Origin: Schmidtea polychroa
Lineage: Eukaryota
Assembly (NCBI GenBank): GCA_044892525.1
Contig: CM097885.1
Span: 30,692,001-30,756,000, forward strand
Direction of reading: 5' to 3'
Length of the DNA stretch: 64,000 nucleotides
The position numbers and the translations under genes are program-made. The notes under the pieces were generated by a model. The model did no database searches, was not told the origin of the DNA, and saw nothing but the letters and a program-made list of their open reading frames with translations. Shown here one piece after another: positions 16,456 to 40,972 of this stretch (the stretch's first letter is position 1; each line of letters opens with the position of its first letter).

Positions 16456-16516
<61 letters not shown>

Positions 16517-16590
16517 ATAATAACAATCACAACAACAAAGGAAAGGATACATTTATTAAACTTCAAATTTTATTAAACATTCATTTTTCT

Positions 16591-16933: not shown

Positions 16934-16940
16934 CTACTTA

Positions 16941-17928: not shown

Positions 17929-17956
17929 TGTCATTTTTTAAATTTTTATTATAAAA

Positions 17957-19249
17957 ATGAATAATATAAATCTTAAAATTCAAGAAAAAAATAAATTAAA
18001 TCTTGATTATAATAAAGAATTTACTCATGAAATCAAGAAAAATGATGTACTTAAAATCTCGCCAACTTCAGGATCTATTGCAAACTTAAATCGTAGGGGT
18101 GATATAGTTTTTCAATCTCTTCAAACATCAAACCCTATAGATATTTGTAATGCTAAATTATATTATAAAATTGAATTAGAAATTGAAGCAAACAAAGATA
18201 TAACCCTAGAAAATAATTTCTTTCCAAATTTATTCAACAACATGAGATTAAAACTAGGATCATCAGAAATTGAAACTGTTTTATATCCAGGAGTATATTC
18301 TACAATGTTAAATTTTATTTTAACTGGTTGTGATTATAAAAATGAATATGGAGAATTATCAGGTTGGATTCCTGATGTTAATAAAGGTGATTTAGATAAA
18401 GATGGTTTAGATATAAATTATGGTTATTATAAAAGAGCTGAACTTTATAAATCTAAAAAATTTGAAGGTTATTTTGAATTAAAACACCTATTTGGATTCC
18501 TTCAAAACTATAACCGTATATTTCATAATGTTTTTATAGAATTAACCTGTAATAGAGTAGAAGGTGATAAAAGATTGTTCTATGGAGCTGCAGATACAAA
18601 AGCTAAATTAAAATTATCAACACTTGAATTGCATATACCTGAATGGACACTAAACCCACATTCTGAGATTAAACTCCTTGAAAGATTAAATTCCAACAAG
18701 TCTATAAATGTAAATTATTTAAATAGAATCTGTAGTGAATTTAGTATGACAGAGGGTTCAACATATTCTATAAAGGTGGCAAATTTAGCATACCGACCAA
18801 GATATATCTTGATTGGATTCAAAGAAACAGATCCATCATTTCAAAAAAATAACAATCTATTTATTCAAAAGATTGGAGATGATAATTTAAAAACAATCCA
18901 AATTCAATTAAATAGTTCTTATTATCCAATAAATAGAATGGAATTTAATATTGAAAATAATGAAAACATATTCTCATATCTAAATTATATTGAAACATGT
19001 TATGATTTCAAAGTTGAACCGCAATTAAGTTTAGAAGATTTCAAAAATTTATATTCTATATTTTGTATAAATGTTTCAGACCAAGATGATCGCCTAGCCA
19101 TAAATAATGTTGATGTTACACTTCATATAACAAAGGATTCTAATTTTAAAGCTAAAGTATATACATTAATATTAGAAGAAAAGAAAATAGAAATGAAATT
19201 ATATGGTGGAAAGATTTCAATTATTGAAAATGTTAGGGGAGATTCTTAA
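17957..19249 (+). CDS. major capsid protein (double jelly-roll) of inner Polinton
   Basis: 430 aa; NNFFPNLFNNMRLKLG..EIE, RPRYILIGF, LNSSYYP and YSIFCINVS segments typical of Polinton MCP. Confidence 0.8.
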   Translation: MNNINLKIQEKNKLNLDYNKEFTHEIKKNDVLKISPTSGSIANLNRRGDIVFQSLQTSNPIDICNAKLYYKIELEIEANKDITLENNFFPNLFNNMRLKLGSSEIETVLYPGVYSTMLNFILTGCDYKNEYGELSGWIPDVNKGDLDKDGLDINYGYYKRAELYKSKKFEGYFELKHLFGFLQNYNRIFHNVFIELTCNRVEGDKRLFYGAADTKAKLKLSTLELHIPEWTLNPHSEIKLLERLNSNKSINVNYLNRICSEFSMTEGSTYSIKVANLAYRPRYILIGFKETDPSFQKNNNLFIQKIGDDNLKTIQIQLNSSYYPINRMEFNIENNENIFSYLNYIETCYDFKVEPQLSLEDFKNLYSIFCINVSDQDDRLAINNVDVTLHITKDSNFKAKVYTLILEEKKIEMKLYGGKISIIENVRGDS

Positions 19250-19266
19250 TATTTTAACATTTTAAA

Positions 19267-20649
19267 ATGTCTTTAAATAAACCCTATTGGAGATGTGAAA
19301 CATGTAATTGTCAAGTTACAAGACATCATAAAGCAAGTCATTTAAAAACTAAAAAACATATAGGAGTCGATATTACACGAACAGGAGGTGACATGCAATC
19401 TTCAAAAACAACATCTTCAATATTAAAACCTTTTACTACAGAAAAATATCCAGGTGAAAGACATTTATTTAAACACAACTATACTGGACCAGGAACAAGA
19501 TTAGATATTAGATTAGATGAAAATAATAATCCTAAACAAGGAGAAGAACCAATAAATAGAATTGATCAAGCAGCTTTAAAACATGATATTGCTTACAACT
19601 CAGAAGATCTTAGAGATAGACATGTTGCAGATGTGAATTTAATACATGATTTAAATAGTATCCAAAATCCATCAACCCAAGAAAAGATTCAAAGTGCTCT
19701 AGTTAAATTAGCAATGAAAGGTAAAATCTTTTTTGGAGCCGGACTTCCTAGAATAGCAAAAGATGTTGCTAATAAAAAGATCCTCGAACAAGCAGACATT
19801 GAAAGATCCCTCGAGAATATATCCAAGACTAGTTTACAAACCCAAACAGAATCAGAAATAAAATATGCCAACGAATTGCACCATGAATTTAGAAAAAATA
19901 AAAAATATTTAAAAGTTCAAGTACATGAAAAAGATCAAACATGGTCTGCAGATTTAGTCTTTATGCCAACCAAATCATCAGACCCTGAAAAATATAAAAT
20001 AATTTTAACAGTAATAGATTTATATACAAGATTTGCTTTTGCAAGATGTTTAGAAAATAAAACAGGATATTCTATTACAGAAGCATTTGAAAATATATTT
20101 GAACAATATCAAAGAATTCCAAAATATTTATGGTGTGATAAAGGAACAGAATTTTATAACAAAGTTTTTACAAAGTTTTTAAATGAAAATGATATTAAAT
20201 TATATTCAACAGAAAACGAAGGAAAAGCAGTTGTGGTTGAAAGATTAAATAGAACATTAAAAAATAAAATGTGGAAATATTTTACTGCTATTGGAAAACA
20301 AAAATGGAACAATGAATTGTTACAAAAGATTGTAAATGAATATAATAATGATGTACATAGTTCTATAAAATCAACACCTTTAAATGCTTCCTTGAATCCT
20401 TTGGAACTCATGAATCCTGTTGAAAATGATGTTATTGAAAAACCAAAGTTTAAAATTGGTGAACGAGTAAGAATATTTAAATACAAAAATAAATTTGAAA
20501 AAGGATTCACAGCAAAATGGACAAATGAAATTTTTATTATAAATAAAATACATTATACAACTCCAATAACATATAGCATCATTGATTTAAATAATGAAAA
20601 AATATTAGGTAGATTTTATAATAATGAGTTACAGAAAACAGATTTTTAA
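19267..20649 (+). CDS. zinc finger - parvovirus-type PLA2 - retroviral-like integrase fusion
   Basis: CETC...H...H finger; NYTGPGT...RIDQAALKHDIAY PLA2 motif; WSADL, CDKGTEF and VERLNRTLK DDE motifs. Confidence 0.9.
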   Translation: MSLNKPYWRCETCNCQVTRHHKASHLKTKKHIGVDITRTGGDMQSSKTTSSILKPFTTEKYPGERHLFKHNYTGPGTRLDIRLDENNNPKQGEEPINRIDQAALKHDIAYNSEDLRDRHVADVNLIHDLNSIQNPSTQEKIQSALVKLAMKGKIFFGAGLPRIAKDVANKKILEQADIERSLENISKTSLQTQTESEIKYANELHHEFRKNKKYLKVQVHEKDQTWSADLVFMPTKSSDPEKYKIILTVIDLYTRFAFARCLENKTGYSITEAFENIFEQYQRIPKYLWCDKGTEFYNKVFTKFLNENDIKLYSTENEGKAVVVERLNRTLKNKMWKYFTAIGKQKWNNELLQKIVNEYNNDVHSSIKSTPLNASLNPLELMNPVENDVIEKPKFKIGERVRIFKYKNKFEKGFTAKWTNEIFIINKIHYTTPITYSIIDLNNEKILGRFYNNELQKTDF

Positions 20650-20660
20650 GTCGACAAGCC

Positions 20661-21455
20661 CTAAAACAAACTTTTCCATATTTCAGCTTCTTCTCTATCC
20701 AAATAAATATAATTATATTTTTCTCTCCAATGATTATCAACAAACATATCAAACATATTCTTATCAGGTTCAACATTTGAAAATAAATCATTATAAATCA
20801 TATTCTTATCACGGCGATCTAATTTAAAAAATATAAAACAATTGGAATTATTTTTTATTGAATTTTTATCTAAAGCATAATATGTTTGAGATATATAAAT
20901 AACATTACAATTATTATGTCTTCCTCTTGTAAAGTAACTCTTTTGGATCTCTTGATTTTTCATGTTGACAACATCATCAAATATAACTAGATTCTTTTTA
21001 TCTTTAGGAAGTAAATCACAATGTAAAACATCTTCAGGTTTATTAGAGAATAAAACTTGAATTGCTTGCCCCTCCCTCTCTTCACAAATATAATCATTTT
21101 TATTACTAATATCTGATTCTAAAATCATTTCCTTATACCAATCAACCATATCACAAGGTTGAAAAACTTCTTCAGGACATCTATGTTGATTTTTAAAAAT
21201 ATCAATTATTGCTTTTTTAGTTAATTTATTTTCAAATCCACATTTCAAAAGTTGTAATTCTGGTTGATTTATGGTTGTAGAGTAAAAGATTAAATTATTA
21301 TAATCTAAAAAATCATCTTCAAGCAACATCCTCAAAAGAAGTACATTCTTTCCACATCCAGAAGAACCAACAATTAATAATCTAAAATTATCAGGAAATA
21401 CTTTATTATTAAATTTACTCTTATGTCTATTTAAAATTGGTTTCCAAATATCCAT
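20661..21455 (-). CDS. A32/FtsK-like packaging ATPase of inner Polinton
   Basis: Walker A GSSGCGKN, Walker B LVIFDD, TRGRHNN...ISQTY. Confidence 0.92.
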   Translation of the reverse strand: MDIWKPILNRHKSKFNNKVFPDNFRLLIVGSSGCGKNVLLLRMLLEDDFLDYNNLIFYSTTINQPELQLLKCGFENKLTKKAIIDIFKNQHRCPEEVFQPCDMVDWYKEMILESDISNKNDYICEEREGQAIQVLFSNKPEDVLHCDLLPKDKKNLVIFDDVVNMKNQEIQKSYFTRGRHNNCNVIYISQTYYALDKNSIKNNSNCFIFFKLDRRDKNMIYNDLFSNVEPDKNMFDMFVDNHWREKYNYIYLDREEAEIWKSLF

Positions 21456-21470
21456 TTTATTTATTATAAA

Positions 21471-22013
21471 ATGACAACTGAAGAATCTTTGCAAGAATTA
21501 ATAAATTCAAATAAAAATAAATCAGTAGTAATTGATGGTAAAAAATATTTTATTGGAAAACATGTAAAAGAACAAGTTAAAGAACGTATTAGAGAAGGTG
21601 GCATTCTTCCATTAGCTGCTTTAATACCTGCAATCATTGCTGCTTTATCAGGTGCTGCTGGAATAGCTGGAGGAATTGCAACTACAGTTCAAAAAGCTAA
21701 AGAATCTCAAAAGACAGACCTTGAAAAAGAAAAACTACAAACTGAAATCGAGAAAATGAAGGTAGGGCAAGCTAAAGGAAAATGTCTTAATCCATATCAG
21801 GGCAAAGGTCTCTATCTTGATCCATATAAAGGCAGAGGTTTAAATGATTTTTTAAAAAATCAAATTTCAACATCTGAATCTTTATCATCAAAAGATAAAG
21901 ATGATTTTAAAAAAATATGTAAATCTTTAAAGAATGGGTGTATTTGTAAAATTGGAGGAACTCCACAGAATAGTGGTAAAGGATTGTATTTAAAACCTTG
22001 GAAGGAACAATGA
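21471..22013 (+). CDS. virion core/membrane-active precursor-like protein
   Basis: REGG|ILPLAALIPAIIAAL hydrophobic helix and repeated GKGLYL motifs resembling adenain sites. Confidence 0.6.
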   Translation: MTTEESLQELINSNKNKSVVIDGKKYFIGKHVKEQVKERIREGGILPLAALIPAIIAALSGAAGIAGGIATTVQKAKESQKTDLEKEKLQTEIEKMKVGQAKGKCLNPYQGKGLYLDPYKGRGLNDFLKNQISTSESLSSKDKDDFKKICKSLKNGCICKIGGTPQNSGKGLYLKPWKEQ

Positions 22014-22035
22014 TACCATTTTTAATACCATTAAA

Positions 22036-22875
22036 ATGGTATATGAAGAAAGATTAGCACTTTTAAAAAAATTACAATCAGAACAAAACAAGTATAATAA
22101 AAAAGATACAACTCAACAAACTGAATCTATAATATTAAATGAGGTAATCCAACAACAACAAGGACCAACAATTAAAGCTATAGAGAGACTTAAAACTATA
22201 GAAGCTCCTCTAACCCCCGAACATAAAGCTATAGAAGCCCCTAGAAAGGAATTACTAAGATTAGTAGGAAAAAAACGTAGAAATAATATTGATTTAGAAG
22301 AAGATGAATTTCTTTCAAGATTAACACCTCATAAGACTCCAATTAATTTTAAAATTAATACATCACTAGCTCCATCAATTATACCTACTATAGGTTATGA
22401 TCCTAGAGGTTTTCAAACAATAACAATTAATAATCAAAAATTTTATATATATTTAAATTCAGAAAATAATCCATCGATTATTTCAACAAATACTTTTATG
22501 AATAGAGAGCGTGTTGACATTGAACTTTCAGATGATTTTCATGGATTAATTTCTGGATATATTCCAGATGGTGTCAAGAATGAAGAAATTGATAAATATT
22601 TAAACTTAATAAAATTAATAAATGGTAGCCCTAAAGCAAAACATATTCAAGATTTAAAGAAATATAAAGATAGAGATAAAACAGGCCCTCAAATTCAAAT
22701 CATTGAAGGAGAAGGCCTCAACCCTATAAATCTTTTTATTGAATTAAGAAAACTATTAGCAGCTAAAAAAGCAGGACATAATAATTTAGATTCTGATATT
22801 TTAAAGATTTCTAAAGATTTGTTAAAACAAGGAATAATTTCAAAAGATAAATTTAATAAGTATACGAAGTTATAA
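22036..22875 (+). CDS. conserved Polinton hypothetical protein
   Basis: 279-aa ORF with GEGL and LLAAKKAGHNN C-terminal motif. Confidence 0.6.
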   Translation: MVYEERLALLKKLQSEQNKYNKKDTTQQTESIILNEVIQQQQGPTIKAIERLKTIEAPLTPEHKAIEAPRKELLRLVGKKRRNNIDLEEDEFLSRLTPHKTPINFKINTSLAPSIIPTIGYDPRGFQTITINNQKFYIYLNSENNPSIISTNTFMNRERVDIELSDDFHGLISGYIPDGVKNEEIDKYLNLIKLINGSPKAKHIQDLKKYKDRDKTGPQIQIIEGEGLNPINLFIELRKLLAAKKAGHNNLDSDILKISKDLLKQGIISKDKFNKYTKL

Positions 22876-22897
22876 ATACGAAGTTATAAAATACAAA

Positions 22898-23338
22898 ATG
22901 GCTTCAATATTAGATTTTTTAAAAACATTTGGAATAAATGCAAAAACAAATTTTGATTTAAAAGATTATGCAGATTATTTAAATTTAAAAATTAAAATAT
23001 TAATGAACGATGAATTATATAAAATTGGAGGTACTCCCCTTAGACGAAGTCCCCAGAATATAATAATCAATTATCAAAATTCAAATGAGAAAGGATCTCA
23101 TTGGGTTTGTATATATAATAAATCTATATACTTTGATTCTTTTGGGATTAAACCCACTAAAGAAGTTGAAGATTATCTCTCGGACTACACTTTTAATTCT
23201 TTACAAGTTCAACCTAATAATACTAAAATATGTGGTATTTTAAGCTTATATGTTTTGTATAGATTGAATAAATCTAAAGGAGAAGGTTTCACTTCCTTAA
23301 TCCAAGAAATTTATAATGATTTAAAATCTTTACTATGA
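22898..23338 (+). CDS. adenain-like cysteine protease of inner Polinton
   Basis: GSHWVC, YFDSFG and Q...CG motifs. Confidence 0.9.
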   Translation: MASILDFLKTFGINAKTNFDLKDYADYLNLKIKILMNDELYKIGGTPLRRSPQNIIINYQNSNEKGSHWVCIYNKSIYFDSFGIKPTKEVEDYLSDYTFNSLQVQPNNTKICGILSLYVLYRLNKSKGEGFTSLIQEIYNDLKSLL

Positions 23339-24167
23339 AAATGGAGCTTCGCAACCTTCCGGAAGATTATTTAAAAAAAATAGCAAACATAATGTCACAT
23401 AAATATTCAAGAAGTTTATTAATAAATTCAAAAGAATCAGATTTTACTATAAATTTTGAAGATTCAATAAATTTAGATCAAGATTTAAATTATGAATTAG
23501 GATTCTTGTGGTTTAGCTGTTTTAATACTATTTTTAATATAAATAATAATAATAATAAATTTATTATATTTAAGAGTGATAATAGAAACCCCCTTTTGTT
23601 TCATTTATTCTCCCTAGTATATTGGAAAATAGTGAATATGAAAAGATTACTTCTAAGGAATACACCATTATAACAATCGAACCAGGATCATATGAAATAA
23701 CAGATTTAGCTAAAACAATTTTAAAAGAAACAAATGGAGAAGTAGAAATAAAAGCAGATATTCAAACTTCAAAATGTATTACAACTTTAAAAAATGTTGG
23801 ACTTGGTGTTACTACTTCTAGTTTCTTTCATAATATTTTAGGTTTTGAAGTCAAAGAATATCCACCATCAACCATTAAATCTAAAAATATTATACAATTA
23901 ACAAATACAAATTCTATAAATATAGAGTGTGATTGTATAATGGGATCATACATTAATGGTAAACATGCAAATATTTTATATTCCTTTCCTTCTAATACCG
24001 TGCGAGTTGGATATAAAATAGTTGAAAGAATGAATCCCCCAAATTATTTACCTTTATGCAGAAAAAATATAATGGATATTAGTTTTAGAATTGTTGATGA
24101 AAATGGGGAATTAATTAATTTTAATGGAGAAAATATTTCAATGTGTTTACATTTGAAACAAGTCTAG
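23335..24167 (+). CDS. minor capsid (penton-like) protein, split into two frames near 23575-23620
   Basis: DFTINFEDSINL, IEPGSYEI, INIECDCI.GSYING and ISFRIVDENGELINFNGE motifs. Confidence 0.75.
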
Positions 24168-24190
24168 ATTTTATTTTTATTACTATAAAA

Positions 24191-25174
24191 ATGAATTATG
24201 CTAGTTATAATAAGTTTGGATTATATAATGATGGATTAAAAGATGAAGATGTTATATCTCTTACAGAAAAGAGATATGTCAATGAAAGAGGTGATTCAAT
24301 GAAAGGAGATTTAATTTTAAATGGACACAAGATAAAAGATTTATCTTTTCCAACTGATGATTCTGATGCAGTTAATAAAAAATATACTGATTTAACAACA
24401 ACAAGAATTGAAAGTTTATTAGCAACAAAAATTGATTCAATAGAATCAAAGCTTAATAATATCGAACAACGATTTAATGATAAATTTGACAAGTTACAAA
24501 GTCTGTTAACTGAACAAGTTGTAAAGTTAAATACTAGCATATTAAATTCTAAAGATAAACAAATTATGAATACTAAATTTAATACAATATATAATATAAT
24601 AAATGAGATGATTACATCATTTAATAAAAGAATTTCAAATTTAGAGTCTCATGGAACACACATTAACACCACACATAGTATTAGAAAAAGAGCTGCTGAA
24701 TTAGAACAAAATAAAACATTATTACCCCATACATATAAACATTTTATAGAACCAAGTTTAATAACAACAAACAGTAAAGAATGGGGTGTTTTTATGGTTG
24801 TAAAGATTATTGATCCTTATTTCTTTTTGTTTGATGATAATAATGAAAGAATGAAATGGTTTGTGAAATGTGATTATAATAGTAAGCTTGAAAAGGGTGA
24901 TGTTATAATGACTAGTTATGATTTACCACACGGAGATTGGTATGTTAATACTCATTCACATGGACTACATAAAGTTAAAAGTAAGAATATTATTTTTAAA
25001 AGCACACTTGTACAATATATAGATTTAATATTTTATGAAAAAAAGTTTGATGTTGATGAAGTTCGTAAAGCATTGAGAGAATTGTATAAAGATATCCTCT
25101 CAACAAGAGTTTCTTTTGATATCCGAGTATTGGTGCCAGATGGTGCTCAGAAGAATAAAGTCTTATTTTTTTAA
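24191..25174 (+). CDS. putative fibre/spike-like protein
   Basis: MKGDLILNGHKIKDL..P....DAVNKKY tail-fibre-like repeat followed by a coiled coil. Confidence 0.5.
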   Translation: MNYASYNKFGLYNDGLKDEDVISLTEKRYVNERGDSMKGDLILNGHKIKDLSFPTDDSDAVNKKYTDLTTTRIESLLATKIDSIESKLNNIEQRFNDKFDKLQSLLTEQVVKLNTSILNSKDKQIMNTKFNTIYNIINEMITSFNKRISNLESHGTHINTTHSIRKRAAELEQNKTLLPHTYKHFIEPSLITTNSKEWGVFMVVKIIDPYFFLFDDNNERMKWFVKCDYNSKLEKGDVIMTSYDLPHGDWYVNTHSHGLHKVKSKNIIFKSTLVQYIDLIFYEKKFDVDEVRKALRELYKDILSTRVSFDIRVLVPDGAQKNKVLFF

Positions 25175-25182
25175 TTATTAAA

Positions 25183-25812
25183 ATGGAAGAAGTAAGAGAA
25201 GAAAAAATTTACCCAGAATTGAGATCATCAGGATATTATTCTTCCAAGGCCTCGGCTCCCACAGAACTTGAAATTATGAGAGTAAAAGAATTTAAATCAG
25301 AAACCTTACATTTACAAGATTTATTAAAGCATTATAAAAAAATTAAAAATAGATGGAATAAAGGGAATACAGTTTTAAAAGTTATAGGTTATTCTTTAGG
25401 ATTTGCATCTGCAATATTAACAGTTATTTTACCCATAACTTTACCAGTTGTTACTCTTTATTTTTTTTTGCACCTGTAATACTTGGAAGTATTTCTGTAG
25501 CTGATGGTTTCTTAACTGAAATAGTTTCATTATCTTATACTTCTAAAAAGAAAAGTTTATATCGTGAAGTTTGTTTATCAATAGAATTAGGAATCTCTAA
25601 ATTATTTTTATTTCAATTAAAAGCTTTAGAAGATGGAATCTTAACTGATGATGAAATAATGAAATCAAATCAAATAATACAAGATATTAAAAATGAGGTT
25701 ATAAGATTAAAAAGTGCTAATGTTATAAGTAATGAATATTCTAAAAAAATTAAACGAGAAAAATGGTTAAAGAATTCTTACTTATAAAATGGATGAATTT
25801 TTAAAAAAGTAG
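25183..25812 (+). pseudogene. Polinton transmembrane protein, frameshifted near 25465
   Basis: IYPEL...HYKKIKNRW then hydrophobic helices; reading continues in another frame after a T-run. Confidence 0.5.
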
Positions 25813-25881
25813 ATCAAGTTGCTATAGTTGCTTAAATTAATTGTCGACATTTTATTATTAAAAAATTAAATATCGTTGGTT

Positions 25882-28800
25882 TCAGTTATGGTTGAAAGCC
25901 AACCTATGAATCATTAATTTATGATCTTTAAATTCTTTATCACTTAGACCTTTTATATATTCAGGATCAGTATTAAAATATTTAAGTTCTAAACATATAG
26001 GATTAAAAACTTGAGAATATAAAGGTTTCTCGATTTGTCTCTCGGGATAAATAATTTCAACATTATAAATATCAAGATCAGTAATCTTTGTATCATATAA
26101 CTTATTCAAACTAGCAAGATTTTTTATTATCGGTATTAAATTATTTCCTATAGGAAGAGTTGTCTTTAAATCACTTAGTATGAATCTTTTATCATCATAA
26201 TTTGATAATGATACTTTTTGGGATTCTATCAAGTAAATATCATGGTTTTCACTTTTAAGTTGATGTATTTCATCAATTTTATCTTTATGACCTGGGTTTA
26301 ATGTATCTATATAATCTTGATGAGAAAGATTCTTTGCAACTGATCTCTGTATTCCTTTACATCTGTTATCCTTTACAGGTTTTTCCTCTTGTCCCTCAGG
26401 TCCTTTAGGGAATATAGGATATTTATATGAAATAATTTCCTCTTTTTCTGGGGTTTAAATATAATTTCTCGAGTTTCAAATTTAGGATTTGTAAATGTTT
26501 CGTATGAATATTGTTTAGCACGAATAAATATTCCATTTTCTATAGGAGTAAAAGGTTTTTCATCTTTAAATGAAAATAGTTCTCCAGATGAATTTATTAA
26601 ATTTGAAAGTATAGGATTTTCAGTCATATCTCTTTGTAAATCATGAGTTCTTATTGTTAAAAACATTGAATCTGTATCCATTGCATGCATTGATATATTA
26701 GAACCATATATAGGTTGTAAGATGTTATAATATGTTTCATACATTTGTAATTTTGAAAGTTCTAAAATTGTAAACCCTATAAATATTGGTTTATTGTATG
26801 TTTTCTCAAAATTCTTTAGTTCTATTGCAGTAAGATTTTCAGAAAATACTTGTGCGTTTTTAAATGTAGGCTTTCCTAGCATACGATTATAACGCTTAAT
26901 GTCTTTGGTAGTATTTGTTAGGAGTTCAATATGAATATATTTATCAACATTCTCCATTGTCTTCCCAAAGACTGAATTATTTAAAAGTTTATAATTATTG
27001 TCTTTAAAAAGGTTACCTTCTCTTTTTGCAATGTTTCGACACCTAATGTTCTCCTCGATAAAAGCCTTCATGAATGGTCTCTGTTTAAATCTTATGACAC
27101 TATGAACTTTTTTTAATATCATACCTCGTGAAAGATAAAACTGTAAAAGTCTATAGTGACAAAGATAAAACCTTCGATCTTTTTGATCACAAAGAAGTTT
27201 CATTGTTGGAGGTTTATCTTGTGAGATTTGCCATTCAGAAAGTTCGTTGATATCAATCTTTCTTCTTACAGGAGCTAAAGGGAAATATCTTGTTCCTGAT
27301 TTTATATCATCTGGATATAATAAGTCACATTCTACAAAGTAACCTATTGGAGAATCTTTAGGAGTTGAAAGTATTTCTTTCATAAGGTCTTTTAAGGATT
27401 CTTCTGAGGAATCTTCAGAGTATATTTCATGAAAGTCACTCATTGGTAAATATTGAGTCATAATTCCTGAATATAAAGCTGTTGCATCTATATAAAGTAT
27501 AAATATAGGATTTTTCATTGTTTCTAATAATTCTTTTAATTCCTCATTGTTAATTTTCATATATGGATCATCAGGGTGTTTAGAGAGTCTTCGGCTAGTA
27601 GTTATTGCATTTCTAGCTTTTATTTCTCTATTCCCCATTACTGAAGAGACTCCTCCTCTAATGTTTGTTTTAATTTGGTTAAACATATCGAGGTTAGTTA
27701 AAAGATCTATAATTTTATCACCTTCTTCTATATTTGAAGTCCAAATGGTATATAATAAAGTATCCCAAGCTAAAGAGGGTGCTGTTATATAATTGTAAGG
27801 TTTAAGAACAAAAGATTTTGTAAATTCTTCAAAGCAATCTGCTAGAATATAAACATCCAAGGATAAATACATACTTGTATATTCTCCTAAAGTTTTACAC
27901 TTGAATAATTCCCACATTTTATTTGCTCGAGAATATTCTTGATCTGTAATATGATATTTTTGAAGTTGTGAAGAGAAATCTTCTTGGCTAGGAAGACTTG
28001 TTTCATTATATTTTTCAAACGAGTCAACATAGTCATAAGGATATATTCCTTTTGCTAAGCATGTAGGATATTCTTCTGGAGGAATATTATTTTTTTCCAA
28101 GAATTCTCGAGTGATTTTAAAATTTTCTGGTTTCATTGTTTTTGCTACTGCATCTAGAGACATTTGGAGAAAGTTTAACGAGTCTATAAATTTTAATTTT
28201 CCATATTCAACTGATTTATATTTTTCCTTTGTAAGTCCTATAACTTTGAAAGAGTTTTTAGCATTTTCTGCTAAATGTTTAATAAATAGATGTATGTCAT
28301 AACCAAAACGATTATGAAATATAACAGGTACAAATTTAGGAGTATGGCAATTAAGATTGCAATTTTTATGAGCTGCTCCTCGATAATTATTTTCCTTTTT
28401 TAAATGATCATGATCGGGGACTTTTATGTTTGAAGATTGTCTTTCATGAAACATTCTTTGTTCTTCTTCTTCAATAGTTTCATTATTTGGAGGTTCCTCA
28501 TGGAGTTGATCCTCAAATGGTTGTTTACACATCCACCAATTTGAAGAATTTTCATATTCTTCCCATTGTTCGGTTGAAAGGTTTATTTCATATTTTGTTT
28601 TTAATACTTTAAATATTTCATGTTCTAGATCATTTATACTTTTAGTAAAATGATTTAAAACATCTTCTGAAGTTCCTTGAAATGTATATTCTCTAGATTC
28701 TATGAGTTCAGGATAATTACTTTTAAATAATAGTTTATAAGCAGAAGGTAATTGTTTAGTTTTTTTAACACTATTAGGTTTATTTCTTTTTCTTAGAAAG

Positions 28801-30332
28801 GCTTTCATCCTCTCTGGTTTCATCTTCTCTCCTGAGGAGTTCCATGAATCCATGAGTTTATTTTTTTCTATTATTTTTAAATATTGGTTAACCAAATCTT
28901 GTTTACGATTTATAGATTCAAAGTCTCCATAAACCACTCCTACTGTTTGTAGTAAATTTGAAAAGTTTTTAAAATTCATCTTGGGATCTGTAGGCATGTC
29001 AATTAAAGCTGGTTCATCTTTTTCACAAAATCTTGTATGTTTAATCATAGAGTTTTTAGTTGTTGAATAATGAAGACATCTTTTACATGTTCCTCCTCCA
29101 CTAGTTGGATTCTCTGGTGATGTAAAAGCTTGAAAGTTTTTTATTAAAACATAATGTTGATTATTTTTTTGTTCCAAGATTAAAAGATATATTTCTCTAG
29201 GGTTTTCGTTATCTTGTACTTCGTTATCCTTGGTTCCACTATCAGAAATGTAAATTGGAATAATTTCTCTACTTTTAATATTTTCCCCTTTAACCCGTTC
29301 ATAAATATTAATTTTAAGATTATTTAAACTTTTAAATTTTGGAATGTCTTCTAGTTTCATTGGATGTTTGAATTCTTTGGGAAATATTAATTCATTTTCA
29401 TATTGTTTGTATTTTGAAACTCTTTGAGGGTTTGATTCTTGAGGGTGTAAATGTGCAAGTATTGACCAGATGAAACATTTGTTATCATTATTCTGTACGT
29501 TTATAACATTTTTAGATGTAAAGGGTGTAGGAATATAAGATTTAGGATTAGGTGGTAATCCTCTCCAATAATCAATCACTAAAGTTTGGAAAGAGTTGAA
29601 TACTAAGTTTGAATCTCCTAATTCATTTTCTACTTCCTCTTGTTTTGCTTCTGCTGCTTTAATTATTTCTTTGATGGTTTTATCAAATCCTTTAGTTGAA
29701 AATAAATATTTAAAGGGTATTCCAATTTCAATATCTAAAGGAGTTGTCTTTTCTTCTGCTCCTCGCCAGTATTTTGCTTTGATTATAATTTTATATTTTA
29801 TAACATTATACCTTGTCAGTTTATAATTTTTTAAAGCTTCAGTGAAAGCATTTTTAATATTTTTTTTATTTTTATTTATATATTCTCCAGGAGTTGCAGG
29901 TCCATTAATTTTTAATTGAAATTCATCTATATGATAAAAATTATCCCAGTTATATTTTTCTCTTTCAACATGATCAGGTTCTCCTTCTGAATGACATTCC
30001 TCATCGTCAGAATTTTGTTTTTTATTTTTACATTCTTTTATATGTTCTAAATAATAGAAATTTAGTTTTGTTGAAAAGTTACAATGAGGACAATATATTT
30101 CTCTATTTTTCCCAATACAATTTTCAAAATGTTTATTATATCCAGAATGTAGAAATCTTCCTTTACATTTAGGACAAAGTTTTGAATTTGTATCATTAAG
30201 ATTATTTTCTTTTAATAAATGAGCTTTCGATTTTAAGTCAGAAATTAATCCAGTTTTATTTTTAAAAACTTTATTACAAATATTACAATTCATTTTTAGA
30301 AAAAATTTTTTTATTGGATACCCTGTTTTCAT
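25882..30332 (-). CDS. protein-primed DNA polymerase B of inner Polinton with N-terminal zinc fingers; one frameshift near 26375-26450
   Basis: YGDFES, YIDATALYS, KLLNNSVFGK and MDTDS motifs; C-terminal CKGI...DDKR lies in a second frame. Confidence 0.95.
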
Positions 30333-30401
30333 TTTATTTTTTAAATTTATATATTATTCATTTTCATAATGTGACAGTCTAATTTTTAGAATTTTATAAA
30401 T

Positions 30402-31389
30402 AAAAATCTGAAACCTAGATAGCGCAGTGGGCTAGACTGGCACAGTGGTTCAAATAGATAGCGGTTCAAATCCTAACTACGGTTAGTTTTTTTTCAACAT
30501 AAAATAATATTAAAAATTTGAAAATAATATTGAAAATGGTGTGGGTATCTTAGATGTATATTTTATTTTATTTATTTTTATTTTATTTTATATATTTTAT
30601 TTTTTTTTATTTATTTTATTTTTTAAACATAAATATGAAAAAAAAATTATTGAAACGGGTGTGGTGGCGAACCGGTAATTATCGCCACCAGTCTTTCGAA
30701 CACCCCCGGATCGATCCCATAATGTGCACATTTATTTCTTGGTTGTTTTCGGACCTCTTTCGGATTCGCTTTCGAATTCATTTGTACTTTCGAGCAGCAC
30801 GCTTAAAACGCCGATGAAATCGTATTCGAGCGAGAAGCGAATAATAAGGCGTGCTGCTATTATCGAATTGATTCTGATGTATGAGTCTGGCCAGCTTGTA
30901 TATTGGAAGAGATTCGATAAACGAAAGAGGTTGAATAAAAAAATGATCCGGATCAAAAAAACTGTTGAGAGGACAGTGAAAAAAAAAATAAAAATACCAC
31001 TGTCCTCTCAGAGCAGTTTTACTATTTCATAAAATTTTTTATTCTTCAAGACATCAAGATTAAGATTTATAAAATTATAAATTAGTCAAATAGCAACTTG
31101 CTAGTTGACATCCTCAAGTAGTGTGTTTATATCCCTAACCAAAATAGCCCTCTAACTTTTTCATAATACCATTTTCTTTTCTATTCTCTTTATGTTTTTA
31201 GTTTGAAGCTTTTGAGTTTGAGGCTTTAAAGATTAAAACAGTTAGAGCCATTAAGGGTGGTTGTTTTCAAAATATAGGGTTAAAATACTATAAAAGTATA
31301 AGTTTTAGGTTGTTTTCTAATGGTTTAAGCGTAATGGAGGTATGTTTTGTTGGGAGGGCTGTTTTGGTTAGGGATATAAACACACTACT
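30402..31389 (-). repeat. right TIR of inner Polinton
   Basis: Inverse of 16941-17928. Confidence 0.95.
30413..30494 (+). ncRNA. tRNA-like putative Pol III RNA gene (right TIR copy)
   Basis: A box TAGCGCAGTGGG 30420-30431, B box GGTTCAAATCC 30463-30473, T8 terminator 30487-30494; ACCTAG/CTAcGGT acceptor-like stem. Confidence 0.55.
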
Positions 31390-31457
31390 TACTTAAATAA
31401 ATCCAGAGTATAAAAAACAACTTACTCCATGACAACGTTTTGTGTTTCAATATACAT

Positions 31458-32678
31458 TTATACCAACACAGTTCTATTTGCAGTAATTTGAACTTCATTT
31501 TCAAATACTCAATATATTATAACATGTACTGGTTCAGTAATAGCTTTTGCAAACTTTATATCCAGTCGTAAATTTCCATTTTGAGGTAATTGACTTTGAT
31601 TTCAATCAAAATCAGGGGCTAAAACAAATTTAAAAAATGGGTATTTGCTTTTAAAATCTTTTAGAGTTATTCCGCAATTCAAATTTTTATCTAAATAACC
31701 CAGATTTCTAACAATACTCTGCATATATGTCGCACAGTAATTGTCATTCTCGAAATCTTGAATATATGTTTCTCTATAATCAGTATTTTTCGACAAAGTC
31801 AATGATGTAACAACAAAGGTTTTGAAAATTGAGCTGGACGCAGTATATGATCCATTATATTGTGTTTCACTTTGAAATGTTATCAGAATAAAATTAGGCA
31901 TTCTTCTGTCACCAAATATTTGTTCTTTATAGAATGATGAAGCACCTTTAGCAATAGCAAATTGTACAATTTCCTTTGTTTTTAATGGATAAATTGCATG
32001 TTTTGAATTAAGACCCAATTGATGACCTGCTAATACTGAGGGGTCTACTCGTACTCTTCTCACCAATAAATTTGCATCAACTAATTGACATATTGGTGCA
32101 CCAGTTGCACTAGTAAGAGATAATGCAGAATCAGACCTTTTCAGTCTAATATGTACATTAACTCCCGGTAGTAAATATTTCGGTTGATCCATAAAATCAA
32201 GTTGTAATGATGAGCACATGGTGAAAACCTTTGAGCCTTTTGCCCACTTTTTTATTTCATCATCACTGCCATAACCCATAGGAGTAAGACATGTATTTTT
32301 AGTATCAGAATTGTAATTTAAAATAGTTTCTATTAATGCCTTGTGAATGAATGTATTATTTCCGCCCTCAATCTTGATATTATTAAATCCCAACACTGCA
32401 TCTTTAAAAAGAGTATGAAACAGGAAATTGTTCGGTATTACATCTGCATTGGCATCCAAAACTTTTCTATCTTTATCTACAACCTTAATCTGAACAGTCA
32501 ATAAAGTATCGTTCAAATCTAAATATTCGGTTTGCGAACCATTAATATAAAACTCGATATCATTTCTACTATCGGTAATTGAATTCATAGGAAAAACTTC
32601 CTCAAATGCCCCAAATTCTATTACAGCCTGGGGCGACGGTCTATCAAATATACATAATTCAGATTTACCACAAATCAT
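31458..32678 (-). pseudogene. major capsid protein of outer Polinton, two in-frame TGA stops near the C-terminus
   Basis: KSELCIF, IEFYING..EYLDLNDTLL, QPKYLLPGV; the frame continues past the stops to GNLRLDIKFA...ENEVQITANRTVLV. Confidence 0.9.
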
Positions 32679-33043
32679 TTTGCAAATATAGTTCCATGTC
32701 CTTTCATTCGTTTGTTTATACGTGATATTCCATGTCTTTTACGTTTTGGAGCATGAGCTGGAGCTGGAGGTTTTTCTTTTTGAAACATACCTGCAACCCC
32801 GGGTAAAACTTTCCCTAATTCTGCTAAAGCATTTGTTTTTAGAGATGGTAATATTTTCTGTTCATTCATAATAACATCTTTTGCAGTTTTCATACCAAAA
32901 CTACCAATACGTTTAAGAATAGGCAGGGCAAATCTACCAATTGTTCTCAACCATCCTGATCCGTACTGTTTACCAATAAAATATGGTAATTCACCACCAG
33001 ATTGGCTACCACTATACATACTAATAATATCAGAATTAGCCAT
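32675..33043 (-). CDS. basic core protein precursor-like
   Basis: QSGG, QYGSG|WLRTIGRFALPILK amphipathic helix, basic tail; lies between penton and MCP. Confidence 0.7.
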   Translation of the reverse strand: MANSDIISMYSGSQSGGELPYFIGKQYGSGWLRTIGRFALPILKRIGSFGMKTAKDVIMNEQKILPSLKTNALAELGKVLPGVAGMFQKEKPPAPAHAPKRKRHGISRINKRMKGHGTIFAK

Positions 33044-34048
33044 TTATTTTACGAAAATGTAATGTCAAATGAGTTTTTGAACCTTTTGGAAATTCGATTA
33101 ATTGACCAGAATCATCTCTTATATTTATTTCTATATTGTTTATACAAGATGTTGAAACAGGTAAATACATGGGATTTTCTACATTGATTTGTACAACTTC
33201 ATCTTGATCATGTTTTTCAATCCATATAGATTTCATTAAAGGAACACTAGAATCGCCAAAAATAACTGGTTCCACGATATTACTGTAAATGAACTTTTGC
33301 TGATGATGTTTAAGGATTTTCGGTTTGTTTGTTCCTTCACAAATTTGTTCATTTTGTGTACATATTGGTTTAGTCAATCCTAATGTTTTTGTCAAATTTG
33401 AGTCAAATTTAACTTGACTAAGATTAGAATTTATACTAAATCTAAATACTTTATCTTTTTGAAGCTCGAAAACTGTTAAAATCTCACTACAATTGTCAGC
33501 TAAAAAGGTTTGTAATTGTTCGAGGTCTGTAATATATAAATTATCTTTAAAAGTATATGCATGCTCAGTTATTTCAATGTATGATAGCTTAAATTTGAAT
33601 TCCACTAAATTATTAGTTTTTGGAAGTGTAGAGAGATTTATTTTGACTGTATCATTAAATACATTACGTAAATCAGTAAATCCAAGACGTTTAGCATCAG
33701 CCATTGTAGAAAATAAAATTTCGAATGGCTTATTCAAGCAATTCATGTATAAATATTGACCATCATCATAAATTATAGGTTTCCTTGATTTCGATGAACT
33801 CGTCAAGTTATAACTATCTTTATCAATAAGAACATTAATATATTCCGTTACTGCTACTTTCTTATTATATTCAATAACAGATTTGCTATAGATTGGGAAT
33901 AAATTGTATACAAATGTAAAATCCAACAGAGCAACTTCCCAGTCATTATCCAAATAGATAGGGTTTTGGAGTTCGATGATGAATTTGCTTGCTTGATTGT
34001 CTGGATGAATTAATGGACAACTATTGCTCGGCAAAATAGTATAAAAAT

Positions 34049-35215
<1,167 letters not shown>

Positions 35216-35276
35216 TACAACAAGAAGATTTAAAATTAAATTTAATGTCGGGCAATGAAGGATTAGCACCCATTGT

Positions 35277-35810
35277 TTATGATTGATTTCCTACAACTCC
35301 ACCTAATAATGATAATGCCAGAGGTATCAATGCACCAATAAATCCACCTTGTTGTTTATATATAATTTTCCTCATTTGCTTACGATTTTTATTATTTACT
35401 AAAGATAACAATGGTTTCCTATGTTTGCTCAATAAATGCTTTTTTGATTTACTGATTTTAATTTTGCCTTTGACTACTTTAAGTATAATATTGAGTAAAT
35501 CATCGACAACAAAATTTGGGAATTATTGCAATATATTCATTCTTTTCATACTCGGGGCCTTTAACAATGCATTAAAAAATGGAAAACTGCGATGATTTTT
35601 AACTACTTTTTTACTGGTTTTACGGGTTTTACGGGTTTTACGTTTAGGTTTAGGATTTTTAGAAATAAGATTCATTGCAGAGAAATTTTCAGTTACAAGT
35701 TTTTTAGACGGTGTATAACTAGTTGTTGGTGGAACTTTTGGAACTTTAATACTCTTTCTAATACTTTTTCTTAATTTCCTAATATTTTTCACCCTTGCTT
35801 TTAGAAACAT
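35277..35810 (-). pseudogene. basic core/pX-like protein with one premature stop (35523)
   Basis: Lys/Arg-rich N-terminus; the frame continues past TAA to KQQGG|FIGALIPLALSLLGG. Confidence 0.65.
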
Positions 35811-35832
35811 TATTCATTATTCATAGAGGTTT

Positions 35833-36460
35833 TCAACTTTGTTTATAAACCATGGCACCTTTTGGGTTGAAAATATCTGTTTTTACTCGTAAATCATCGG
35901 GACATTGTTGTGTAAAATCAAGAAATATATATCCATGAGGTATTTTTGTAGCATCTTGAAATGCACTGATAAGAAAATTACGATTGTTAGGGTATGCTTG
36001 GCGTGCAAGAAAATCAATCACTGTTGCATCTCTAGGATTCTTGAAAATAACTAAATATTGTACATTTAAATTACGTGTTCGATGTGCCCCACCTTGATGA
36101 AATAGATTTTGTGTTATGAAAATAACTGTTACACCGACATGTCTGCTGATCTTTGTAAATAAATTATTAAAATCTTTTTTCTTTATTAGCTTCTTGATAC
36201 AAATCATCGATAATAATGACATCACCTTTCTTTAATCGGCTGGAACAGTTTTTATCAAATCCCTTTACTATTTTCATGTTTTTTAATTTACAGAAACTTG
36301 ATTGAGTTAATCCATGTTCTTCATCAGCACCCCTATGCCAATAAATCCTGTTGAATTTTGATTTGAATAAATTTGATTTTAGTAATTTACAAACAAATAA
36401 TGTTTTTCCACTACCACTCGGACCAACGATTTGGTATACTGCATCATTTCTTAATTCCAT
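35833..36460 (-). pseudogene. A32/FtsK-like packaging ATPase of outer Polinton, frameshifted near 36180
   Basis: GPSGSGKT, IIIDDL, SRH...ITQNLF and FKNPRD motifs across two frames. Confidence 0.92.
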
Positions 36461-36559
36461 TTCAAAAATTTTATAAATGTGTATTTGTTTATATTCGATG
36501 ATTTAATGAACTCGTGCTCAATTTATATATAAAGACTAATTTTCATAAATGATTTAATA

Positions 36560-36997
36560 ATGTTAGCAAATATAAATTATCGAGGAAATTTTGATGTATC
36601 AAATATGAGGTTCCCACCAGGGAAACCCCAGCAAATTATCGATAGAAGCGGGAAATATCCGATAATATTTTTCAAGACTGGTAAATGTCGAATCATGGGA
36701 TGTAAGAAATCTTTGGATATTAATAAATTACAATATCGAATAAATAATATTATAATCCAATCAATTACCGTTACTATGGATATGGGACATAGTATCAATC
36801 TATATAACATGTCGAAAAAATGTGATTGTATGTTTGAATCGGAATTGTTTCCGGCACTAAGACTATTAAAATATAACCCTATATGTGTCAACGTGTTTGC
36901 TAGTGGAAAGGTTGTCATGTTGGGGTTGAGAAATTTGGAGTATAGAGAATTTGTTGACAATGTTCGAAATGAGATAATTTCATTGGTCGATTTCTAA
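36560..36997 (+). CDS. TATA-binding-protein-like protein
   Basis: Two TBP-like repeats: IFFKTGKCRIMG and FESELFPALRL...VNVFASGKVVMLG. Confidence 0.8.
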   Translation: MLANINYRGNFDVSNMRFPPGKPQQIIDRSGKYPIIFFKTGKCRIMGCKKSLDINKLQYRINNIIIQSITVTMDMGHSINLYNMSKKCDCMFESELFPALRLLKYNPICVNVFASGKVVMLGLRNLEYREFVDNVRNEIISLVDF

Positions 36998-37068
36998 TTG
37001 GTTAATTTCTAATTGGTTATTGATTGATTTAAACAAACGGTTTTTTGTTTAGGATTCATTTATTTCAC

Positions 37069-37472
37069 TATGTACAAAATACCAAGCGCCGCGAATTTAA
37101 TAAAAGAAATAGATGATTATGGTAAATTTTTATTTTTTGTTTACAAATTTAAATATTATATTTTTCAGAAGAATATGCTGCAGTCATGCTAAAGAAGTTA
37201 GCATTCTATTATCCGGAAATCAATGCAGCAGTATACAACAAGCCTGCAGAATTAATCCCCGATTTGGTGTTCAATGCGACGGGGATAAGGATGTTGGAGA
37301 TTTTCATCAATTTATGTGGGAGGTGAAGATAAATCGATCAATTAAACATGTGGATCCAGAATATTTATGTTACAATAGCTGTTCCTGCTGCAAAGCTAGA
37401 TATCAGCGATATGTAGAATGGGTTTTGGTTAAAACTCTTCGGGATTTCCACCATATCAAGAACGCATTTTGA
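37069..37472 (+). CDS. small spliced hypothetical gene, structure uncertain
   Basis: ATG at 37069, GTAAAT...TTTCAG intron ~37122-37168, Cys-rich C-terminal frame. Confidence 0.35.
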
Positions 37473-37561
37473 ATGTTTTTAACAAATAAATGTTATTTAA
37501 TTTTCGTTATTTAGTTTTTGATATTTTATATATTTTGATAATAGTAATAATAATAGTAATA

Positions 37562-37622
<61 letters not shown>

Positions 37623-37885
37623 TAATAGTAAAAAACATTAATAATAGTAAAAACATTAATAATAATGAAACACATTAATAATAAATCTGTAAATAGAACA
37701 TGTAATAATTAAAACACATAAATAATAAATCTGTAAATAGAACATATAACAAAACATGTGACAATGCAACATCAATGCATTTTGAATGCAATTTAAACAA
37801 AGACATGCTATAATCTGATTGGTTGATAGGCATGAGTCAATGGTATAAAAAACCCTGTAACATTTTAATTTATTCATTATTCACG

Positions 37886-38296
37886 ATGACCAAGAAAATT
37901 TCAATCACCGAAAAACCTAAAGAAATGGTACAACCAGCTCAAATGTTCCACAACTACAAAATGTATTTTTTGAAAGAAGAAATCAATATGAAATTGGTTG
38001 CACCAGTCAAGCTAATTCCAACTAAATTTCAATTCTTATCCGGCACGCTTTCAATGATTGATGTCAAAACAATTGATGATGTTTTTAAACGGATAGATTC
38101 GAATCTATCGTGTAATCAACATGCGTGGTTCAACAATAGATATGCAAGATTTTATGATGCTTTTGATGAAATCAGTTTCAAAGAAAATGAAAATTGGTAT
38201 ATAACAATTGCAATCCAGGGATATAAAGTTGATAATAATGATGTATATTCTCCTATTTGGAAAATTATGTCTGCTAGACTTTCACAAATATTTTAA
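37886..38296 (+). CDS. hypothetical protein, possibly OB-fold ssDNA-binding
   Basis: 136-aa ORF after a CCAAT/TATA promoter; C-terminal ITIAIQGYKV...PIWKIMSARL beta-strand pattern. Confidence 0.55.
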   Translation: MTKKISITEKPKEMVQPAQMFHNYKMYFLKEEINMKLVAPVKLIPTKFQFLSGTLSMIDVKTIDDVFKRIDSNLSCNQHAWFNNRYARFYDAFDEISFKENENWYITIAIQGYKVDNNDVYSPIWKIMSARLSQIF

Positions 38297-38424
38297 TGTT
38301 ATATTTAATAAATGTATTAGTCAGATTTGTTTTTTTTTCTTTATTAATTGCAACATAAATGCAAATGACATGCAAATTTAACAAAGAAAATCTATAAACA
38401 AACTTATAATTTAGTTTTAAAGTG

Positions 38425-38795
38425 ATGAAAATGACTGCAGAAAAAGGTTAACATGATTAATTAATTACCGACTTATTTATTATTTAGAATTTTTAATCAA
38501 CTTTTTGTTGGAAAAGTTAGCAGAAATATCTGGTGTGAAAATTGAGGACATATTATCTGTTACAAATGCCTTAAATATCGGCTGGTTAGTTGAGAGTGAA
38601 GATACAGGATTTGATGATGAGGAAGAAACTGAAGAAATTGATGAGGAAATCTATGAACCTATAGATGAACCTATAGAGGAACCTATAGAGAAACCTAAAG
38701 ATGAATCTAAAGATAATATTACGAATGATTGTATTGATCATGTCGTTGAAAATATAATGAAATGTGGAGATGACGACTGCGAATGTGTTAATTAA
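38425..38795 (+). CDS. small acidic protein (exon 1 38425-38446, intron 38447-38487)
   Basis: Splice restores the frame MKMTAEK|EFLINFLLEKLAE...; D/E-rich with EPI repeats and a Cys-containing tail. Confidence 0.6.
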
Positions 38796-38872
38796 TAAAT
38801 CTTAGTTAATTAGTGTTTGTAAATTTATTTAAAATTTTATTTAAAAATCAAACAAAATAACTATATTAATTT

Positions 38873-39387
38873 TTATTTAAAAAATCGCGATAAAGCATAC
38901 AAAATAGCAACACCTGTTGCAAGTTTTATATAGTTTTTAAATTTTCTTTTCTGATCATCTATTTCCTTCGCATTTCTGGCGAGTTGATTCAGTACGCCCC
39001 ATCCGCCATTGGCTTCAATCCATGGTTGAAACTTTGACTTGATTATCTAGAAAATAAATATTAATAAAATATAGATTATAAAAGTATTACTTCTTGAGAC
39101 CACTGATAATAATGTTCAGAGTCCCATAGACTTCTTTCGATTATAATCTTCATATAAGCGAACCCTACTAGTATTCGGGTCCACTTCATCTCCTCGTCGC
39201 ATAGGCAGTTAAAAATCCTATGAAAATAAAATTTTTTCGTTTCGAGGCAATCGGAATTGAGCACATCCTCATAATCAATATGATTTCCTTCTATGATCTT
39301 TTCGGTCCGATCGACCAGGAAACTTAGACTTTCCATAATATTCTTGTTGACGAGTTCGCTTAAAAGATTTTCCATAAAATGAGACAT
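38873..39387 (-). CDS. Bcl-2 family protein (exon 1 39091-39387, intron 39047-39090, exon 2 38873-39046)
   Basis: BH1-like EMKWTRILVGFAY, BH2-like PWIEANGGW and C-terminal anchor IKLATGVAILYALSRFFK. Confidence 0.85.
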
Positions 39388-39492
39388 TTTTACAATAATT
39401 AAAAATATGATGTTTTATTTATACTAATACTGTATGATTTTGATTGGTTGATAGACTATAAATGTAAAAGAAAGGTTTTGATTTGATACACC

Positions 39493-39993
39493 ATGAAAAC
39501 TATATTCATATTGCTAATTATTATAACGAGTGTGTGCTCACACAATACAACAATAACAGTGGAGCCTTTTAATAAATCAATATGTGTTTGTCCGAATACA
39601 GCCAAGTTGATGGATATTTTATATATTCTCGATAAACCAAAATGGTCAAAGCATCCAGGAAAAAGAATATCTCAAAGATTGGAGAATTTAGAAAACAGTT
39701 ATGAACTAACATTTGAATATATACAAAATATAAAAATTAAATTGATTGATCATATTGAAGTTTTCAATAACTCTATTGCTGAAAATAAAAATAATATGAA
39801 AATTATTGATAAGAAGCATGATTATTTGTTAAAAAAGATTGAATTATTATTAAGAGAAATTCAAACAATCAAAGGATCAATAGAATATCTGAAAATCAAT
39901 TCAACGTTACCAATTTCAAACAATATTGCAGCGAATAGTAGTACATCAATATTTAGTTTACCTTTGTTAATTTTACATTATTTTATTGTTTAA
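39493..39993 (+). CDS. secreted or GPI-anchored coiled-coil protein
   Basis: Signal-peptide-like MKTIFILLIIITSVCS, heptad-rich middle, hydrophobic C-terminus after NSS. Confidence 0.65.
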   Translation: MKTIFILLIIITSVCSHNTTITVEPFNKSICVCPNTAKLMDILYILDKPKWSKHPGKRISQRLENLENSYELTFEYIQNIKIKLIDHIEVFNNSIAENKNNMKIIDKKHDYLLKKIELLLREIQTIKGSIEYLKINSTLPISNNIAANSSTSIFSLPLLILHYFIV

Positions 39994-40111
39994 ATAAATG
40001 TATGTTTTGTTGATTTGTTGATTTGTGAGTTGTTGAGCGTGACAGTACCCTAGTGAGCATTACCCATAGGGGGACAAAATATTTTGTCGGATAGACTCGG
40101 AGTATATAGAT

Positions 40112-40972
<861 letters not shown>

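Follow-up and report, generated by a model that had tools for sequence, protein, structure and literature searches.

A Bcl-2-like gene with a predicted 44-nt intron in a Polinton of Schmidtea polychroa

Bcl-2 cargo in Polintons and intron-bearing cargo in Mavericks have both been published already (PMC8502044; 10.1101/2022.07.12.499685). Starrett et al. 2021 state that adintoviruses have homologues of Bcl2 and of IAP, and Bcl2 is labelled three times in the text of their Supplementary Fig S2 (PMC8502044). The gene reported here is comparable by description, as a Bcl2-like accessory gene lying beside pPolB, an rve integrase, a packaging ATPase, a protease and a capsid; the main text of that study describes no intron for the adintovirus genes. 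Nematode Mavericks carry the cargo genes wasp and krma, which have introns, and the core genes are called intronless in the available text of Widen et al. (10.1101/2022.07.12.499685). The likeness lies in intron-bearing accessory genes near the end of the element, but the nematode cargo is a protease or a kinase, whereas in the present element the core integrase also has a candidate intron. Planarian Burro LTR retrotransposons carry a BCL2-like domain (PMC6431247). Burro is thus a further case of an apoptosis-regulator domain on a mobile element, likened here by description; its domain, however, sits within a retrotransposon polyprotein, whereas ours is a free gene that is predicted to be spliced.

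With the viral Bcl-2 proteins, such as adenovirus E1B-19K, EBV BHRF1 and vaccinia F1L, the gene shares its shortness, its divergence and its virus-like carriage. An ESM Atlas cluster with Adeno_E1B_19K members is reached by the first exon at 0.86, which is a lead only, and no significant alignment of E1B-19K, BHRF1 or F1L with the element's gene was obtained. Unlike it, BHRF1 retains the GR pair of the BH1 motif (PMC9609553), and the functions of the viral proteins are experimental whereas that of the element's gene is proposed. The cellular Bcl-2 family has BH1- and BH2-like motifs in the same order, a C-terminal hydrophobic tail and two coding exons in common with the gene; the element's gene differs in a BH1 threonine in place of glycine, in Pfam scores for its first exon that fall below the cut-off, and in an intron that lies away from the conserved position. 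In the open-access literature, judged by titles and by passages of text that include those of PMC11071296, 10.1101/2023.08.22.554363, PMC12220804 and 10.64898/2026.10.13.758929, we found no account of a Polinton Bcl-2 gene that is spliced.

The outer Polinton and its surroundings

The window, by which we mean the whole stretch of 64,000 nucleotides that was analysed (assembly GCA_044892525.1, contig CM097885.1, positions 30,692,001 to 30,756,000 of the forward strand), contains two Polintons, one inside the other (Table 1). The outer one begins and ends with the (AGT)2//(ACT)2 motif described for Polinton ends (PMC8097293). Its terminal inverted repeats match at 717 of 765 aligned bases, its target duplication is 6 bp long with five of six bases matching, and without the nested element it measures about 18.2 kb. 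It has genes for pPolB, an rve integrase with a chromodomain, an A32-like ATPase, an adenovirus-type protease, a TBP-like protein and a RING protein. A sequence-only reading of this DNA had placed the Bcl-2-like gene in a Polinton, and the ends, repeats, target duplication and core genes now bear this out. Pfam models matched among the genes of the outer and nested Polintons are PF03175, PF00665 (with chromodomain), PF04665 (weak, E 0.0036) and PF00770; the outer capsid ORFs have no match in Pfam, and we take them to be capsid genes by position and likeness.

The nested Polinton interrupts the protease gene of the outer one, and 16941-31389 holds no copy of the Bcl-2-like gene. The outer copy is damaged elsewhere too: pPolB is spread across three ORFs, the ATPase occupies two frames that overlap, and in-frame stops occur close to the end of the major-capsid ORF. 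Both exons of the Bcl-2-like gene are open, but given the damage to several core genes this copy of it may be silent. A search of sequencing runs with the stretch listed 13 runs, seven with all or part of it and four with at least half of its words; no RNA run was listed among the carriers, and the search is silent on expression.

The surroundings are themselves layered. A Polinton with PLA2-like and pX-like genes lies inside the protease gene of another Polinton, which lies within one arm of a palindromic element, in the manner of a Russian doll. Each arm of the palindrome has a RING-H2 gene (7235-7903 and 43687-44355), and the uninterrupted arm represents the empty target site of the outer Polinton. 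Bounds of 6580-45010 for the outer element were rejected, the arms belonging to the palindromic element into which the Polinton inserted. Both terminal repeats of the Polinton contain subterminal short-repeat arrays (8418-8995 and 40455-40896) rich in TGACTCA/AGGTCA-like words, similar to our eye to the half-sites of AP-1 and nuclear receptors. At 57010-59363 lies a second, diverged pPolB fragment that shares 67% identity with the outer polymerase region over about 2.4 kb, and ORFs for an LTR-retrotransposon-type gag, protease-RT-RNase H and integrase occupy 45113-49246 on the minus strand.

The Bcl-2-like gene is head-to-head with an ORF on the plus strand, and in the spacer that separates them each ATG is preceded, at a distance of 36 nt, by TATAAAT, with a single CCAAT at the centre. 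TATAAA occurs at a comparable place in 6% of the element's AT-rich windows, and we regard the spacer as a candidate compact two-way promoter. Upstream of the ORFs for the ATPase, the capsid and the acidic protein the box reads TATAAAC or ATAAAC rather than TATAAAT; this difference hints that the Bcl-2-like gene may belong to a different, perhaps early, class. The neighbouring ORF (39493-39993) would encode 166 residues with hydrophobic N- and C-termini and a coiled-coil middle, possibly a secreted or membrane protein, and no family was found for it.

Table 1. Features of the outer Polinton, the Bcl-2-like gene and adjoining elements (positions in the window).
Feature	Position	Strand	Remarks
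Large palindromic element	about 6580-8363 + 40973-45010		arms 95-99% alike; centre near 41945-42227
Outer Polinton/Maverick	8364..40972		ends AGTAGTAG...CTACTACT, AGTAGT/ACTACT; Bcl-2-like gene near right end
Nested Polinton	16941..31389		14,449 bp; perfect TACTTA target duplication; DJR capsid, PLA2-like/integrase, pX-like, ATPase, pPolB
Candidate RING-gene intron	9593..9636	+	44 nt, GT-AG; gene 9572-10140
Candidate integrase intron	34675..34827	-	153 nt, GT-AG, 99% AT, TAT microsatellite, in frame
TBP-like gene	36560-36997	+	145 aa; Pfam TBP E 1.6e-13; head-to-head with ATPase
Candidate small accessory ORF intron	37122..37168	+	47 nt, GT-AG; ORF 37113-37472, frame tentative
Candidate acidic-ORF intron	38447..38487	+	41 nt, GT-AG; ORF 38431-38795, adjoins Bcl-2-like gene
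Exon 2, Bcl-2-like gene	38873..39046	-	57 codons + stop; stop ends at 38873
Predicted tail anchor	38929-38879	-	hydropathy and basic flanks
BH2-like WIEANGGW	39022-38999, exon-2 residues 9-16	-	from sequence
Predicted intron	39047..39090	-	44 nt, GT-AG, phase 0, 89% AT, GTAATA start, TTCTAG end
Exon 1, Bcl-2-like gene	39091..39387	-	99 codons from ATG at 39387; predicted helices 1-6 (start)
BH1-like KWTR	39186-39175, residues 68-71 of exon 1	-	from sequence
Degenerate BH3-like segment	exon 1, near residues 24-29	-	Pfam register
Head-to-head spacer	39388..39492		105 nt between Bcl-2-like gene and ORF 39493-39993(+)

Gene structure and kinship with the Bcl-2 family

Removal of the predicted intron (39090-39047) joins the two exons into a predicted product of 156 aa. 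The interval has a T-rich 3′ end and a branch-like TTAA at −18, contains stop codons in all three frames, and ends in the TAG of the acceptor, which itself bounds the exon-2 frame upstream. None of the 385 windows of 44 nt within the two exons is as AT-rich (maximum 0.84, mean 0.63). Fifteen GT/GC-AG pairs would restore a single open frame, and this pair gives the longest product; the other 14 were dropped because all of their products are shorter, and most cut into BH1 or helix 5. The interval is likely to be removed as a spliceosomal intron, putatively of the U2 type. Intron lengths in planarian genes have a peak at 45-85 nt according to the available text of PMC13594981, which the 44 nt would fit roughly. 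The coordinates, the strand, the GTAATA...TTCTAG interval and the length of about 156 aa given in the sequence-only reading agree exactly with the sequence, and the KWTR and WIEANGGW motifs and the tail helix with basic flanks that it named are all there. Its statement that the gene is hidden from the ORF track holds for exon 2, which is absent from the ORF list, but not for exon 1, which is visible there as a 103-aa ORF.

Exon 1 has seven relatives, all unnamed proteins and 63-91% identical to it, two of which came from a protein search, four from cluster listing and one from a HMMER scan that covered 1.84 billion representative proteins. That same scan returned no cellular Bcl-2 protein at E ≤ 0.001. 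Protein searches with exon 2 gave no relative at near lengths and none among 55 longer candidates at E ≤ 10, and exon 2 has no usable match in the ESM Atlas. Locus scans of viral contigs and metagenome contigs found no relative of the gene; the lone exon-2 match in them, L001, was rejected as a chance 11-residue match within an unrelated ORF. Residues W69, T70 and R71, with the helix that follows them, are invariant in all eight exon-1 sequences, down to 63% identity, and 13 of the 19 positions at residues 81-99 are invariant, the high conservation reaching the last exon-1 codon.

Does so divergent a gene belong to the Bcl-2 family? Tested separately, the window's own exon 1 and exon 2 match no Bcl-2 model in Pfam. 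Against the PDB (177,635 sequences, E ≤ 10), exon 1 has only two matches, both over BH1 (E 0.8 and 1.1) and both to Bcl-2 proteins, which we take to be those of schistosomes. PF00452 is the best Pfam family for all seven relatives of exon 1 (E 0.0008-0.02, profile positions about 6-69), with scores of 15.9-20.4 bits that all lie below the curated cut-off of 31.4 bits, exon 1 representing about two-thirds of the model. Searched against the PDB, a profile of the eight exon-1 sequences gave 15 matches, of which 11 are Bcl-2 family members and four are falcipain; the top six are A1/BFL-1, a pro-survival member (best E 0.043). In the ESM Atlas the top match of exon 1 is a Bcl-2 cluster at 0.93 with 212 shared features, and all ten of the ten best family matches agree, with a recognition value of 2056 that is under the 2300 mark. 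For exon 2, all 45 PDB matches are Bcl-xL, aligned at exon-2 residues 5-32 over BH2 (best E 0.068). The two exons pick the same family independently and in the right order, and they are therefore convincing together though each is weak alone; the Bcl-2 kinship proposed from the letters is upheld by these separate matches to Pfam (through the relatives), the PDB and the ESM Atlas. Two structure models of exon 1 are all-helical and of low confidence (pLDDT 56 and 62). Fold searches with them gave no match at E ≤ 0.001 in the PDB or BFVD; the best VIA-align Z was 5.9, and Bcl-2 appears only in weak rows (A1, in the PDB fold search, E 4.9).

W69 and R71 align with the BH1 of A1 and of the schistosome Bcl-2, and the glycine of the GR pair is replaced by threonine in eight of eight sequences. 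This glycine is very strongly conserved, and the arginine beside it is the hallmark BH3-binding residue in pro-survival complexes (PMC9609553). Loss of the glycine in other members has been read as a sign of a groove that is likely non-functional or altered; since accepted members such as Trichoplax Bcl-2L4 and mouse Boo also lack it (PMC8998228), the threonine bears on ligand binding more than on membership. Downstream of BH1, if the predicted splice is made, comes the BH2 motif W...GGW. Between BH1 and BH2 the predicted spliced product is short by about 5 residues when set against the Pfam model, on our assumption as to where the Bcl-2 model ends. In Pfam register, the segment that we take to hold the BH3 position reads L-x-x-R-T-E and is without the Gly-Asp that killers have there. 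The C-terminus has a hydrophobic 15-17-mer with basic flanks (best Kyte-Doolittle 15-mer 1.56, 19-mer mean 1.0), with seven K/R and one D/E in the last 27 residues; it is predicted to form a membrane anchor of moderate hydropathy. Function aside, we consider Bcl-2 kinship together with splicing to be highly probable.

Proposed function and rival readings

The explanation that we favour, with reasonable though far from complete confidence, is that the gene is a Polinton accessory of the Bcl-2 family, likely spliced, whose tail-anchored product of 156 residues would soak up the death proteins of the host, as a pro-survival sink. Its starting point is a pair of reading frames, in N-to-C order and each Bcl-2-like, inside an element with Polinton ends. 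With the TATA/CCAAT spacer as promoter, the gene would be transcribed by host Pol II, and its intron would be excised by the spliceosome of the host. As in the family at large, the product would fold as a Bcl-2 helical bundle, with its C-terminal helix inserted into the mitochondrial outer membrane or the ER. The BH1 arginine would then pair with the aspartate in the BH3 motifs of host proteins, whether Bak/Bax-like or BH3-only, with the threonine in place of glycine narrowing the range of ligands that fit. Apoptosis triggered by replication of the element and by integrase cuts would thereby be blunted, so that carrier cells survive and the element spreads.

The invariant change of the BH1 glycine to threonine makes ordinary BH3 binding less certain, and it opens the way to an alternative that we judge unlikely but worth weighing, in which the gene is spliced and has a Bcl-2 fold that binds no BH3 motif of the death pathway, serving instead as a membrane-tethered scaffold that modulates innate-immune signalling or autophagy. 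Some poxvirus Bcl-2-fold proteins do act on these processes, and one ESM Atlas cluster matched by exon 1, at 0.91, combines Bcl-2 and Poxv_Bcl-2-like members. The same glycine loss in Trichoplax Bcl-2L4 was read as indicating a possible alternative function (PMC8998228). Vaccinia F1L, however, has a divergent BH1 and still blocks apoptosis (PMC9609553; PMC2836074), and the element's gene retains the BH1 tryptophan and arginine, a near-canonical BH2 and a predicted tail anchor. A pro-survival BH3 sink of narrowed specificity is the most likely role.

A second alternative, which we hold to be improbable, denies the splice altogether: the 44 bases would stem from the insertion or decay of AT-rich sequence, by which a gene that was once continuous became broken, and either the 103-aa exon-1 product or nothing would be made. 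No spliced form of the gene is present in the protein collection searched, other genes of the same copy are broken, and vertebrate Mavericks are reported to be intronless (PMC8097293). The relatives in the collection are, however, ORF calls from short contigs, which are unable to show splicing, and the interval has canonical GT-AG ends and a T-rich end between two stop-free exons. In all seven relatives, moreover, either the alignment ends or a stop falls within 14 codons of the same point. Five close relatives have the window's read-through tail or a variant of it. Another, P0002 (69% identical), can be aligned up to the last exon-1 codon and then has an unrelated tail of 13 residues, which begins with Val and ends Phe-Arg-stop, where the window's read-through begins with Val and ends Ser-Arg-stop; judged from the protein, this tail would fit a 38-nt intron of the same phase. 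The last exon-1 codon is followed in P0007 by Gly-Ile-Tyr-stop, with Gly instead of the Val expected at the donor codon, so that its donor site differs or is shifted; this counts against a fixed donor site, and it speaks for the broken gene.

Against that reading stand also the four similar candidate introns in the same element (Table 1), to be compared with about 0.29 intron-like sites per kb, by loose criteria, across 31317-40000. The integrase interval, translated in the ORF list as a stretch of Ile residues, is a candidate for an intron in a core Polinton gene; the candidate introns of the RING gene, the acidic ORF and the small ORF all lie near gene starts. The intron proposed in the sequence-only reading is thus supported by its canonical ends, its composition, the relatives and these further candidates, with the splice as such predicted.

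Least probable of all, and in our view very doubtful, is a pro-death protein, Bax/Bak-like or a dominant-negative of a host survival protein, used for particle release or as a selfish toxin: three of the 15 profile matches are BAK core fragments (E 0.84-1.9) and nematode Mavericks carry the precursor of a selfish toxin (10.1101/2022.07.12.499685), but the conserved killer BH3 core is missing, its Gly-Asp replaced by Thr-Glu, which makes a Bax/Bak-like killer unlikely, the best matches are A1 and Bcl-xL, and the gene is retained in a resident element and has several sequence variants.

Origin of the intron and significance

Where did the gene and its intron come from? In cellular Bcl-2 genes an exon boundary directly after GGW is kept from sponges to mice (PMC8998228). 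The junction predicted here lies 16 codons upstream of that site, and the bases after the GGW codon in the element's gene begin with GG and offer no GT, leaving the post-GGW site empty. The sequence-only reading had called the gene captured. Capture is plausible, given that PMC8998228 describes the Bcl-2 family as metazoan. The intron, however, is off the conserved site, and neither the HMMER scan with exon 1 nor the exon-2 search of longer candidates retrieved a host gene or donor. The intron may derive from a host paralogue that has this other intron, or the ancestral intron may have been lost and a new one gained in the element.

A broader proposal, which we offer as speculative and consider unlikely, is that Polintons of this lineage acquire spliceosomal introns of host type during their residence in the genome. 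The Bcl-2-like gene would have been captured without the post-GGW intron and would then have gained one at a private site; introns would likewise have arisen in the core integrase and in three or more accessory genes. As the new intron separates BH1 from BH2 and from the anchor, its retention would give the anchor-less 103-aa form, so that the element's control of cell death could be switched by host splicing.

As judged from its sequence, the gene extends the known accessory repertoire of an animal Polinton by a divergent anti-death gene that is probably functional. Neither ORF calling nor Pfam picks up such genes once a tiny intron divides them, and their number is therefore probably underestimated. 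The natural variant in which the BH1 glycine is threonine is a useful case for testing how much the BH3 groove can be altered. Most deserving of attention are the non-ancestral intron and the intron in the integrase; if both are real, the family would offer a tractable way to study how introns are gained by virus-like elements, which are usually held to be intronless.
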